A program made the translations under genes and the position numbers. DNA of 64,000 bases from an uncultured Thermoplasmatales archaeon. GTDB lineage: Archaea; Thermoplasmatota; SW-10-69-26. Positions 2,772-59,778 of this stretch are shown here, piece after piece. The notes under the pieces are model-generated. The model was not told the DNA's origin, ran no database searches, and worked only from the letters and a program-made list of their open reading frames with translations. Each line of letters begins with the position of its first letter. The first letter of the stretch is position 1. The stretch covers positions 1,528-65,527 of the forward strand of contig CAYNEI010000013.1 in NCBI GenBank assembly GCA_964396185.1. The letters run 5' to 3'.

Positions 2772-3422
2772 ATGGCACTCGGTCAGAAACTCAGATCAGG
2801 CAACAAGCGAGGGCTCTTCGGATGGCTCCGAAGCGCTTTCGGGAAAGAACAGGCCAAGGTGGGCATCTATGGCCCACCGAACGCCGGGAAGACCACGTTG
2901 GCCAACCGCATCGTGCGGGATTGGGCCGGCGACGTGATGGGGGCTGCCAGCGAGGTGCCGCACGAGACGCGGCGCGCGCGGCGCAAGTCCAACATCCAGA
3001 TGAGCCACAACGGCTCCGGGCTCACTCTGGATATCGTGGACACGCCAGGCATCGCCACCAAGATCGACTTCCACGAGTTCGTGGAGGACCACGGCTACGA
3101 GGAGGGCGATGCCCGCAAGCGGGCCAAGGAGGCCACGGAAGGCGTGGTCGAGGCGATCCGTTGGCTCGACGATGTGGACGGCATCATCCTCGTGATGGAC
3201 GCCACCCTGGACCCGTTCAACCAGGTCAACGTCACCATCCTTGGCAACCTCGAGGCCAGGCGCCTGCCGGTGGTCATCGCGGCCAACAAGATCGACCTCC
3301 CGGACTCCTCGCCGGCGACCCTCAAGAACGCGTTCCCGCAGCACCCGGTGGTCCCGATCTCGGCGATCACAGGCTACAACATCGATCAGCTCTACGACAC
3401 CATGGTGGAGACCTTCAGGTAG
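2772..3422 (+). CDS. oapA: Era-like GTP-binding protein OapA
   Basis: GPPNAGKTT, DTPG, NKID; first gene of the conserved archaeal GTPase-DUF2073-Zn-ribbon trio. Confidence 0.85.
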   Translation: MALGQKLRSGNKRGLFGWLRSAFGKEQAKVGIYGPPNAGKTTLANRIVRDWAGDVMGAASEVPHETRRARRKSNIQMSHNGSGLTLDIVDTPGIATKIDFHEFVEDHGYEEGDARKRAKEATEGVVEAIRWLDDVDGIILVMDATLDPFNQVNVTILGNLEARRLPVVIAANKIDLPDSSPATLKNAFPQHPVVPISAITGYNIDQLYDTMVETFR

Positions 3423-56258: not shown

Positions 56259-57470
56259 ATGGAAGGCAGGCTTGCACGGAGGCACGGCATCGTCTGGATC
56301 GCGACCATCTCGCTCTTGCTCGTGGGCATGGGACCGCTCACGGCCTCCGCTGGCACCACGGTGCACACCGTGGCTCCAGGGGAGAGCATCCAGGACGCCT
56401 TGGACGCCGCCCAGCCCGGTGATACCGTCCAGTTGCTTGCAGGCGTGCATCAGCCGAGCAACGGTCTGCTCATCGACACCCCCGACATCACGCTGGAGGG
56501 CATCGACCGGGACGGCACCGTGCTCGACGGGGACAACCTCCACCCGCAGGCACCCCAGAAGCACGCCATCGAGATCGTGGCCAACGATGTGACCGTCCGG
56601 TCGCTCACGATCCAGCACTTCACGGGTCACGGCGTCTTCTACCACGACGTCACCGGCTTCCTCGTTGAGGAGGTCACCGCCATCGCCAACGGCCCCTACG
56701 GCATCTACGCCATCCGCTCCGAGCTCGGCACCTTCCGGGACTCCTATGCCGCGGGCCACGCGGACAGCGGCTTCTACCTCGGCGAGGTCGGCGCCTGCGA
56801 GTGCGTCATCGAGAACGTGATCGCCGAAGACAACCTCATCGGCTACTCCGGCACCGGTGCCAGCCACATCATCATCCGGGACAGCCTCTTCCAGAACAAC
56901 GCCGCAGGCGTCGTGCCCAACGTGCTCCCCAACGAGCCCGAGGCCCAGACCAACCTCATGATCACGGACAACGTCGTCCGGGACAACAACAACCAGACCG
57001 CCTCGGACAAGTGGCACTTCAGCCAGGGCGTCCACGTCCCCAGCGGGCTCGGCATCGTCATCGCCGGCGGCATCGACGACCTCGTCCGCCACAACGTGGT
57101 GACCGGCCACGAGCGCGCTGGTGTGGCCATCTCCTTCCTGTTCACCGAGCCCAGCCTCAACCGGGTCCTGGACAACACGTTGGACAACCCCGGCGACGAC
57201 ATCCTCTGGGACGGCGGCGGGGTCAACAACTGCTTCGAGGGCAACACGCGCCTGGACGGCTCGCCCGCCACCTTCGATGCAGGCACCCTCTGGAACACCG
57301 TGGGCGAGCTGCCCGACTGCTCGACCCCCAACGCTGGAGCCCCGGACCCGGGCATGATGACGCGGCTCGTCTCGCTGTTGATCTTCAACTGCGAGCCCTG
57401 GGAACAGCCCGGTGCTCCCTGCCATTCCAGCCATCTCGCTGGCGGCGGGTACGGCTCGCTGCTCCCCTAG
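56259..57470 (+). CDS. Secreted right-handed parallel beta-helix protein
   Basis: Signal peptide; PGESIQDALDAAQPGD.V, GPYGIY, GHADSGFY.G, NN.AG repeats. Confidence 0.8.
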   Translation: MEGRLARRHGIVWIATISLLLVGMGPLTASAGTTVHTVAPGESIQDALDAAQPGDTVQLLAGVHQPSNGLLIDTPDITLEGIDRDGTVLDGDNLHPQAPQKHAIEIVANDVTVRSLTIQHFTGHGVFYHDVTGFLVEEVTAIANGPYGIYAIRSELGTFRDSYAAGHADSGFYLGEVGACECVIENVIAEDNLIGYSGTGASHIIIRDSLFQNNAAGVVPNVLPNEPEAQTNLMITDNVVRDNNNQTASDKWHFSQGVHVPSGLGIVIAGGIDDLVRHNVVTGHERAGVAISFLFTEPSLNRVLDNTLDNPGDDILWDGGGVNNCFEGNTRLDGSPATFDAGTLWNTVGELPDCSTPNAGAPDPGMMTRLVSLLIFNCEPWEQPGAPCHSSHLAGGGYGSLLP

Positions 57471-57509
57471 GACATCGAGACATGCGGCCCGCGGCACCCC
57501 CGCGGGCCG

Positions 57510-58304
57510 CTAGCGGATCGCGCCGGCTGCAAGCGCTCCGGTGGCCGAGGTATCGAGCTGGTCGAAGAGCTCATCCACCGGGCCCACGTCGCGAACCACC
57601 TCGTACCCGCCCTGACCATCCAGGGTGAGCCGAGCCACGCTCTCACCCAGCTCGTCGTTCGCCGCGGTCACCAGCAGCTCTCCGCTGGCACCGCCCGGGA
57701 GCGAGGGACGAAGCGCGTACTGGCCGTCACCGAGCTCCTGGGCGTGGTGGTCGAGGGGCTGCCCGTCGAGGGTCACCTGGAAGGTGGCATCCGTGATGGG
57801 TTCACCCAGTCGGTCGAGATCGAGCCGGAGGGCGTCGAGCTCGCCAGCCACCTGGACGCGCAGGGGGTAGACCCGCAGGAGCCCGAACATGCCCGCCTCG
57901 AAGTGCGTGTCCACATGGCAGTGGTAGAGCCAGTCACCATCGTGGCCCTCCTCGAGCCCGGCCGTGACGTTGAACACGTGGGTCTCGCCGGGCAGCAGCA
58001 GCTTGGTGTCGATGAAACCCCCGAAGCTGGGATCGTGCCAGGGGTGACCGTGGACGTGGAACGTGTGGGCCTCAGCGTAGGCGGGGACGTGCACGATGAA
58101 CTGGAGGCGCTCGCCCACGTAGGCCTCGAGCAGGGGTGTGTCTGGCCACTGCTCACCGTTGAACTGGTTGCCTTCCATGACCAGCGCGAACGCGCGGTGG
58201 CCGACCACGATGTCGGGGGCGTCGTCATGGTGGCCGATGGCGCCGGTGATCCCGGCGGGGGTCAGCGCGAGGCTGAGGGCCACAGCCATGAGCAGGCGGC
58301 TCAC
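57510..58304 (-). CDS. Multicopper oxidase subunit B: small-laccase domain 2 plus C-terminal extension
   Basis: HTFHVHGH and WLYHCHVDTHFEAGM (complete T1 site); own signal peptide; GTGA overlap. Confidence 0.85.
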   Translation of the reverse strand: MSRLLMAVALSLALTPAGITGAIGHHDDAPDIVVGHRAFALVMEGNQFNGEQWPDTPLLEAYVGERLQFIVHVPAYAEAHTFHVHGHPWHDPSFGGFIDTKLLLPGETHVFNVTAGLEEGHDGDWLYHCHVDTHFEAGMFGLLRVYPLRVQVAGELDALRLDLDRLGEPITDATFQVTLDGQPLDHHAQELGDGQYALRPSLPGGASGELLVTAANDELGESVARLTLDGQGGYEVVRDVGPVDELFDQLDTSATGALAAGAIR

Positions 58305-59176
58305 GAGACCACCACCTCTCCCGTGTACTCGCCCAGGAACGGGTGGAAGGCACGCCAGGCGTATGCGCCAGGCTCCGGGTTCTCGACGACGAAGCTGCGC
58401 GAGACACCGGGCCCGATGCGTACCTCGCCCACCTCCTCCCCGCTCGGCGCGTCCAATGTCACCGTGAACCACCAGTCGCCCAGCCCGGAGACGGCCAGCT
58501 CGAAAGCCTCGCCTGCGGGGTGCTCGACGTCGAGGCCGAGCCCTCCGTTGGCCCCGGCGTTGCTCATGTGCAGGCCGTAGATCTCGTGGGCCGGTTGGCC
58601 TGGGGCGAGCACCACCATGGTCCCGAACAAGCCGCGCTCCTGGCCATGCACGCCACCGGGGCCCATGACGTGGTCGTGGTAGTGCCAGGAGCCCCGCCAG
58701 GGCACCGTGAACGTGTACGTGAACGAGCCCCCTGGCAGCGCCAAGCTGTCCTCTAGCTGGGTAGCTGGGATCGCCCGGATCCCATCTGAGCTGGCAGGCC
58801 CGGAGACGCCGTGGCGATGCAGGCTGGCCGGCGCCTGGCTGAGCTCGGCTTCGAGCTCCGGGTCCACGTCCAGCCCAGCCACGGTCTCGGGGATCCGGTT
58901 CTCCAGCGTGATCCGCACGGTATCGTGCTCCTCGAAGACCAGGGTCGGCCCTGGAACTTGGCCGTCGTAGGCCAGGCAGACGTCGTCCTCGTGTTCGTTG
59001 TCGAAGCCCGGCGGGCAGGCGATGGCCTCCACGGTTATGGTCAGCGCGTGGTCGGGGCCGTCGTGGGACTGCACCGACACGGGCGATTCGTCGGTGGACC
59101 CGGTGGGGCCCATCGCGATGGCACCCGCGGCCACCAGACCCGCGGCGACCAGCAGCCAAGCGTGCGCGCGGACCAT
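58301..59176 (-). CDS. Multicopper oxidase subunit A: small-laccase domain 1 plus ligand-less second domain
   Basis: VPGPTL, SLHRHG, WHYHDH, GLFG; own signal peptide. Confidence 0.85.
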   Translation of the reverse strand: MVRAHAWLLVAAGLVAAGAIAMGPTGSTDESPVSVQSHDGPDHALTITVEAIACPPGFDNEHEDDVCLAYDGQVPGPTLVFEEHDTVRITLENRIPETVAGLDVDPELEAELSQAPASLHRHGVSGPASSDGIRAIPATQLEDSLALPGGSFTYTFTVPWRGSWHYHDHVMGPGGVHGQERGLFGTMVVLAPGQPAHEIYGLHMSNAGANGGLGLDVEHPAGEAFELAVSGLGDWWFTVTLDAPSGEEVGEVRIGPGVSRSFVVENPEPGAYAWRAFHPFLGEYTGEVVVS

Positions 59177-59181
59177 GTGGC

Positions 59182-59778
59182 TCAGAGCTCCAGGGTGATA
59201 ACGAGCTGGCCCCGCTGGAGGCCCGGGTGGACGGTGCAGATATAGTGGAGCACGAAGGACCCATCAGCCTGCCCGACCGCCTCAGGGCACGGCGTCCAAA
59301 CCACGACCTCTCGCTCCTCCCCCTGGTCGTCCTCAACGATCTTGATGCTGCGCGATTCCAAGGTCCCGTTGGCCAGCCGGAAGGTCCCGGTGGCCGGCGC
59401 GTTCGGCGCCAGACCCTTGTTGAGACAGCTCCCGGTGGCTGGGGTGTCGTAGTCCGGGTCGGTGCTGGTGACCGTGTGGAAGCCGCCGTCGTCGCTGGTC
59501 CAGGTGACCGTCGTGTTGGCCTCCACGATGGTGGTGGGGCTCATGAAGCGGAACGCGCTGGCGCCGATCTCGCACGACGGGATGCACAACCCCTCCTCGT
59601 GGCTGGGTGGATCCTCTGCCGGTTCATCGCCTGGTGGCTCCGCGTCGTGTCCAGCTGCTTCTGGATCCTCTGAGAACCCCTGGCCTTCGAGTTGGCCTGG
59701 GGGATCGCTTGCCAGCGCCCACGCGCCCAGCCCGGTGGGCACGAGCAGCGCGAACGCTACCAACAGCGCGCCTCGCAT
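59182..59778 (-). CDS. Secreted cupredoxin (plastocyanin/halocyanin-like)
   Basis: TVTWT...HTVT and YICTVHPGLQRG. Confidence 0.75.
   Translation of the reverse strand: MRGALLVAFALLVPTGLGAWALASDPPGQLEGQGFSEDPEAAGHDAEPPGDEPAEDPPSHEEGLCIPSCEIGASAFRFMSPTTIVEANTTVTWTSDDGGFHTVTSTDPDYDTPATGSCLNKGLAPNAPATGTFRLANGTLESRSIKIVEDDQGEEREVVVWTPCPEAVGQADGSFVLHYICTVHPGLQRGQLVITLEL

Follow-up and report, generated by a model that had tools for sequence, protein, structure and literature searches.

To our knowledge, every textbook multicopper oxidase draws all of its copper ligands from a single gene product. In the type-B, two-domain small laccases, among them SLAC (3cg8), Ssl1 (4m3h) and the Amycolatopsis enzyme (3ta4), the ligands lie in the common motif set HxH, WHYHDH, HTFHxHGH and HCHxxxHxxxxM, and in the trimers that these enzymes form, each domain 1 has its cluster face covered by a neighbour's domain 2. 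Three-domain oxidases (ascorbate oxidase, 1aoz; McoC, 3zx1; Thermus laccase, 2xu9; CueO) hold cluster ligands in domain 1, have a copper-free middle domain, and carry the type 1 (T1) copper site together with further cluster ligands in the last domain. Multicopper oxidases with a second kind of polypeptide are known as well. In the Mnx complex (MnxG with MnxE/F, 9bxa), every catalytic copper ligand resides in a single chain, and no oxidase domain is present among the small subunits. The heterodimeric fungal laccase-like POXA3/NLAC enzymes likewise keep all catalytic copper ligands in one chain, their small subunit not being an oxidase domain (PMC10443355). Here we describe a three-gene cluster, located in a 64,000-nucleotide stretch of DNA from an uncultured Thermoplasmatales archaeon (contig CAYNEI010000013.1; this whole stretch is referred to as the window), in which, unlike in POXA3/NLAC and Mnx, the cluster ligands themselves are divided between two gene products, A and B. 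In the searchable literature we found neither an oxidase in which different gene products share out the cluster ligands nor a description of the conserved two-gene layout. With a probability of roughly 75%, we read A and B as the separately exported subunits of an obligate heteromeric multicopper oxidase that assembles 1:1 and has the cupredoxin-like product of the third gene, C, as its partner.

The three genes are present at the place where the original prediction had put a cupredoxin in one operon with a split laccase, and lie head to tail and tightly linked on the minus strand in the order C, A, B. Gene C (59182..59778) encodes a secreted cupredoxin-like protein of 198 aa; gene A (58301..59176), whose start lies 5 nt past the stop codon of gene C, an oxidase domain 1 followed by a ligand-less domain 2 (291 aa); and gene B (57510..58304) a T1 domain followed by an extra beta-sandwich domain (264 aa). 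The only Pfam family matched by A is Cu-oxidase_3 (residues 66-191, E 1.8e-15, 57.5 bits, above the cut-off) and the only one matched by B is Cu-oxidase_2 (E 1.7e-10, 41.3 bits, above the cut-off). In A, the motifs HRHG (residues 120-123; 58819-58808) and WHYHDH (residues 164-169; 58687-58670) provide trinuclear cluster histidines H120, H122, H167 and H169. These are invariant across the 43 A sequences collected in our searches, while the T1 cysteine and its HCH motif are absent from gene A, the HCH motif being found in 0/43 A sequences. In B, HTFHVHGH (residues 80-87; 58067-58044) contains one T1 histidine and two cluster histidines, and HCHVDTHFEAGM (residues 128-139; 57923-57888) the T1 cysteine, histidine and methionine with two more cluster histidines, giving H83, H85, H128 and H130 as cluster ligands and His80, Cys129, His134 and Met139 as T1 ligands. 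Both B motifs are kept in 18/18 stand-alone B sequences. The canonical set of 12 copper ligands is thus complete only when A and B are combined, and the eight histidines in four HxH motifs plus the T1 His/Cys/His that define a multicopper oxidase are supplied by the two proteins jointly; throughout the family they are divided over two genes instead of being encoded in one. The sequence motifs therefore agree with the claims from which we started, namely that A has the domain-1 motifs and no T1 cysteine and that B has an intact domain 2 followed by an extra domain, which here accounts for some 115 further residues.

Beyond domain 1, gene A retains the outline of a complete small laccase. Its AlphaFold2 model (predicted local distance difference test, pLDDT, 89.1; predicted template modelling score, pTM, 0.83) shows two cupredoxin domains in one chain, as in type-B enzymes, and superposes on their whole chain; the T1 and cluster ligands that type-B enzymes hold in domain 2 of the same chain are missing. 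The best 50 PDB matches returned by Foldseek for this model are all two-domain small laccases, aligned over about 290 columns with TM-scores by target length (TMt) of 0.62-0.66. When residues 196-291 of A were aligned with hhalign to profiles of two-domain oxidases, domain 2 was matched in register with a probability of 89% (E 2.4e-6), compared with 28.6% (E 6e-4) for domain 1. A BLASTP alignment of A with P0054, a Streptomyces small-laccase relative, likewise extends past domain 1 and sets GLGDWWFTVTL on THGDYFHTFHL. At the positions where small laccases have HTFHLH and HCH, this domain of A has WFTVTL and RAF, respectively (DWWFTVT, 58477-58457). Within the family, the hhalign comparison of A's domain 2 with the copper domain of B was too weak to be informative (probability 4.5%), and the outgroup profile decided the matter instead. 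The domain spans only about 95 aa (residues ~196-291) and many of its residues are nearly invariant, which argues that it is maintained and not decaying. On its sequence and predicted fold, then, A is a full small-laccase-like chain with a shrunken domain 2 devoid of any ligand, and the ligand-less vestige that had been proposed is borne out by the in-register alignment and the fold match. An invariant Cys54/Cys67 pair is also found in A (59017-58976). The ligand-less domain opens with a family-specific motif, DLH(L/M)xDxGxNGGxGL, which includes the nearly invariant His203 (A residues 201-206; 58576-58559) and has no counterpart in small laccases; it may form part of the A-B interface or of a metal site.

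Gene B corresponds to the other half of such an enzyme. It aligns with domain 2 of the two-domain oxidase outgroup with an hhalign E-value of 2.8e-35, is 38% identical to domain 2 of the small-laccase-like P0054, and finds MnxG and two-domain laccases as PDB sequence matches (E 1e-18 to 1e-19). Its C-terminal ~115 aa form the extra domain, which is all-beta and modelled with high confidence in a fused relative; Pfam Ig-like or CarboxypepD_reg-like matches in two relatives probably fall within it. The possibility that A and B are parallel two-module paralogues was considered when MAFFT first paired both of their domains, and was rejected on an hhalign probability of only 9.6% between the extra domain of B and domain 2 of A. 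Compared with type-B enzymes, in which, as is predicted for A and B, the cluster sits between domain 1 and domain 2 of another polypeptide, the two halves of the cluster here come from two different gene products, the own domain 2 of A is ligand-free and reduced to about 95 aa, and B lacks a domain 1 and has an additional beta-sandwich domain.

All three products appear to be exported. The N-terminus is the most hydrophobic segment in each of A, B and C, and inspection of the sequences revealed no later membrane segment in any of them. A carries a Sec-type signal peptide and B one of its own, MSRLLMAVALSLALTPAGITGA, and a hydrophobic, signal-peptide-like N-terminal segment is found in 18/18 stand-alone B sequences. 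SLAC is exported by a twin-arginine signal, and in this respect A and B, with their Sec-type signal peptides, differ from it. The original prediction had endowed B with its own ribosome-binding site and signal peptide, both of which stand, the former as a Shine-Dalgarno-like, purine-rich GGAGAGGTGGTG 5' of the start codon. The start itself had to be corrected to the GTG at 58304, which overlaps the TGA of A by 4 nt (GTGA), yields a protein of 264 aa and is identical to the start called in P0056 (86% identity).

A search for the same split in other genomes, proposed as a check on the original prediction, shows that it recurs. Protein searches returned 43 stand-alone A and 17 stand-alone B clusters along with nine clusters of fused, single-chain proteins, and the split is found at 40-50% identity in over 40 assemblies that are independent of one another, a recurrence well past what chance would produce. 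Of the 21 genomes examined of this class, nine have the family, with A and B adjacent on one contig in 9/9; in a sample of ~380 other genomes of the phylum, only 2 have it. Among 1.84 billion library representatives (50% identity), the family accounts for about 20 clusters, some 18 split and 2 fused, after which the matches continue at E-values of 1e-10. The relatives are labelled Thermoplasmatota or Thermoplasmata archaeon. A scan of genome contigs was dominated by Streptomyces small laccases sharing GxWHYHDH and returned three archaeal loci only. The 4-nt overlap between the start of B and the stop of A is present in 5/5 loci (the window, G001, G019, L114 and L116). This conservation bears on the suspicion that the split is an artefact or recent damage, with a single-chain oxidase frameshifted, misassembled or turned into a pseudogene. 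Throughout gene A the frame of B is indeed open, which often happens at 69% G+C, and single-chain relatives do exist, but the recurrence of the split in dozens of independent assemblies, the 4-nt overlap and the conserved signal peptide of B, in whose place the fused proteins have an acidic, disordered linker, exclude all three forms of damage, and the fused forms are themselves a derived state, as described below. We accordingly give this explanation almost no credence. That an ordinary three-domain oxidase was split by a frameshift was ruled out on the same conserved split and signal peptide, on the two-domain identity of the relatives and on the derived position of the fusions.

The history of the two arrangements was examined in separate trees of the A part and the B part, with branch support from the Shimodaira-Hasegawa-like approximate likelihood-ratio test (SH-aLRT) and rooted on two-domain oxidases, the closest relatives outside the family. 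Fused forms make up one clade in both trees (SH-aLRT 99 and 100). In the A tree, branches supported at 99 and 97 place this clade within the split forms, and the B tree agrees on the nesting with weaker support. Because of this nesting, one fusion explains the data, and on the sequence trees the extant family was split ancestrally and acquired the fusion later. The deepest branch is represented by a minimal three-gene locus (L116, 5565-7265) encoding a cupredoxin of 142 aa, an A of 260 aa and a B of 161 aa; this B has a His-rich tail (GHHHGHA) and no extra domain, and the beta-helix gene described below is absent from the cluster. For the stem of the family, duplication followed by complementary loss would be the most economical history of the pair.

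The fused proteins have features of their own. Their N-terminus bears a lipobox-like AGC, and in 9/9 of them (P0046-P0053 and P0014) the second T1 histidine is replaced by Asp (HCHxxxD, e.g. HCHINADIPMW). In the B tree the branch of the fused clade is long, suggesting a remodelled T1 site and a changed function in this clade. One genome, G004, has two fused genes (L025 2726-4600, minus strand; L026 3-1712, plus strand) in addition to an ordinary split pair (G004:C69).

In the mechanism that we propose, A and B would be made and exported separately and would assemble outside the cell. A would provide domain 1, with four cluster histidines, and a copper-free structural domain 2, and B the T1 copper site and the remaining four cluster histidines. 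Electrons would enter at T1 in B and travel by way of the His-Cys-His bridge to the cluster between A and B, where O2 would be reduced to water. The cupredoxin encoded upstream would be a conserved partner and most likely the electron donor to T1. The pair would descend from type-B, small-laccase-like oxidases by complementary loss, the single-chain form having arisen later through one gene fusion. The core of this proposal, a heteromeric laccase as originally predicted, is supported by the small-laccase ligand set spread across A and B, the fold of A, the homology of the individual domains and the conservation of the split.

As to the form of the assembly, the single-chain model of the fused relative P0046 (pLDDT 85.2, pTM 0.83) was used as a proxy. 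In the PDB it is matched best by three-domain oxidases, over 470-584 columns and with TMt up to 0.64, pointing to the arrangement whose domain logic A and B would share: cluster ligands in the first domain, a copper-free middle domain, and T1 and cluster ligands in the last. In contrast to the three-domain enzymes, the chain is broken between the middle and the last domain, where a second signal peptide intervenes, the middle domain is much smaller, and the family derives by sequence from two-domain oxidases instead; a single chain with the cluster between its domains 1 and 3 occurs only in the fused relatives and not in the window. The original prediction had envisaged AnBn assemblies, and the same subunits could in principle build a ring with more members, for instance (AB)3, on the plan of the small-laccase trimer or of ceruloplasmin. 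That the closest relatives are trimeric two-domain oxidases, and that A retains their whole two-domain fold, would be in keeping with a ring. However, since the dead domain 2 of A at the domain-1 face would shut out B, and since the fused relative is modelled as a compact, three-domain-like monomer, we regard a ring as unlikely and, from the model and the geometry, consider a 1:1 A-B heterodimer with the architecture of a three-domain oxidase more probable. The heteromer of A and B is thus retained from the earlier proposal, with its stoichiometry refined. A trimer of A alone would, by the logic of the ligands, be missing half of each cluster and would be expected to be inactive.

Besides its signal peptide, the product of gene C has a C-x3-C that is conserved (CIPSC), a histidine in GFHTV (59484-59470) that is a candidate ligand, and Cys and His in CTVHPGLQ (59238-59215). 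It matches weakly the halocyanin family TIGR03102 (E 0.0076), and its nearest solved relatives, again weakly related, are the tethered cupredoxin domain of a nitrite reductase (9cck) and a Nitrosopumilus blue copper protein (5fc9). The association of a cupredoxin with the split oxidase, part of the original prediction, extends to the relatives, a cupredoxin-like gene being found upstream of A in 5/5 loci (the same five in which A and B overlap). The counterpart in L114 is 31% identical (E 4e-19) and keeps all cysteines and ligands, and the counterparts in general share the ligand His and the Cys-x2-His, the His/Cys/His set being conserved in five of them, along with a C-[IV]-P-x-C motif and two further cysteines, which makes four cysteines besides the ligand. 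Their axial residue varies, being Leu/Gln in the window and Phe/Gln, Phe/Met or Met elsewhere (59238-59215 in the window; P0238 and P0239; L028 2216-2764; and the cupredoxin open reading frame of L029 ending at 3084). Gene C is a putative member of an unusual T1 subfamily, and a role as electron donor to T1 would fit best.

A number of points weigh against the heteromeric oxidase with a cupredoxin partner. None of A (MVRAHAWLL...), B (MSRLLMAV...) or C has a twin-arginine motif, so that copper loading must occur outside the cell. The fit of the P0046 model to three-domain oxidases is moderate, with a root-mean-square deviation of 7-10 Å, and AlphaFold may have leaned towards known folds in this model. 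Gene C has no Pfam match, its axial position is Leu/Gln and not Met, and, given the conserved C-x3-C, its product may instead be a copper chaperone. A gene encoding a CopC-CopD fusion adjoins the oxidase cluster in G001 (L028 5810-7933, minus strand) and L114 (1481-3160, minus strand), which points to copper handling and not to respiration. Finally, we infer the physical A-B complex, its stoichiometry, its substrate and the role of the cupredoxin from sequences and models.

The last of these points leaves room for an alternative in which A and B do not assemble, A being a copper-binding or structural protein and B a stand-alone T1 electron carrier with leftover histidines; single cupredoxin domains can, after all, function by themselves. 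We consider this alternative highly improbable, given that in both families the eight cluster histidines show little or no variation although useless alone, that the two genes adjoin in all nine related genomes carrying them and have overlapping start and stop codons at the five junctions read in detail, and that an A-B fusion, the usual mark of interacting partners, has become fixed in one clade.

The points that concern gene C and CopC-CopD are those on which a different function, compatible with the heteromer, could be built: a Cop/Pco-like copper homeostasis system in which the oxidase converts Cu(I) to Cu(II) and gene C is the chaperone. The best NCBIfam match of A, far below threshold, is a copper-resistance oxidase family, and the CopC-CopD neighbour in two loci, the conserved C-x3-C of gene C and its non-canonical axial ligand would all suit such a function. 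On the other hand, CopCD is absent from the cluster in the window, G019 and L116, the CopD genes of the source genome lying on other contigs (C64 and C91); on reading A and B we saw no methionine-rich segment of the cuprous-oxidase kind; and the full His/Cys/His T1 set is kept in gene C. Copper homeostasis is therefore a possible function of the system, and one that we hold to be rather doubtful.

Downstream of B and convergent with it on the plus strand lies a gene (56259..57470) for a secreted parallel beta-helix protein of 403 aa, with Pfam Beta_helix and NosD matches. In G001, G019 and L114 its counterpart separates the cupredoxin gene from A and shares their strand; the beta-helix gene is thus part of the operon in these relatives and a conserved neighbour in the clade with the larger form of the cluster. 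In the window it has been moved and inverted, the four-gene set having outlived this local rearrangement. The protein scores 117 bits against NCBIfam beta_helix_1, below the cut-off, and has no PDB sequence match. A NosD-type role in N2O reductase maturation is not supported, given a score of 38.6 bits against TIGR04247 (cut-off 300), covering the first 67 positions only, and the absence of nosF, nosY and nosZ-like genes among the open reading frames read around the cluster; 'parallel beta-helix protein' is a safer description than NosD. The 39-nt gap between the convergent genes (57471..57509) can form an 11-bp G+C-rich hairpin with a fold of -30.8 kcal/mol, which may mark a transcript end; its z-score against shuffles is weak (-1.74), and the hairpin may mean nothing in DNA of 69% G+C.

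If A and B do form one enzyme, they would represent a new quaternary form in a heavily studied and applied enzyme class, with an O2-reducing cluster built from two secreted proteins, and one would have to ask how an archaeon puts together a trinuclear copper site extracellularly. A and B may also prove useful in engineering, for modular oxidases or for activities that depend on assembly. Related genomes contain both split and fused forms, G004 even the two together, and the family would therefore offer direct experimental access to the long-debated route from two-domain to three-domain oxidases. Tentatively, and at somewhat less than even odds for the two parts taken together, the family may be a living record of a way in which trimeric two-domain oxidases can give rise to single-chain three-domain ones and, at the same time, a cupredoxin:O2 oxidoreductase. 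A gene of the small-laccase type would have been duplicated and its copies would have lost complementary parts, leaving an obligate A-B heterodimer, which in one clade was later fused and had its T1 site remodelled from His to Asp; with the cupredoxin dedicated to it, this oxidase would serve Thermoplasmatota as an extracellular cupredoxin:O2 oxidoreductase and not as a phenol oxidase.

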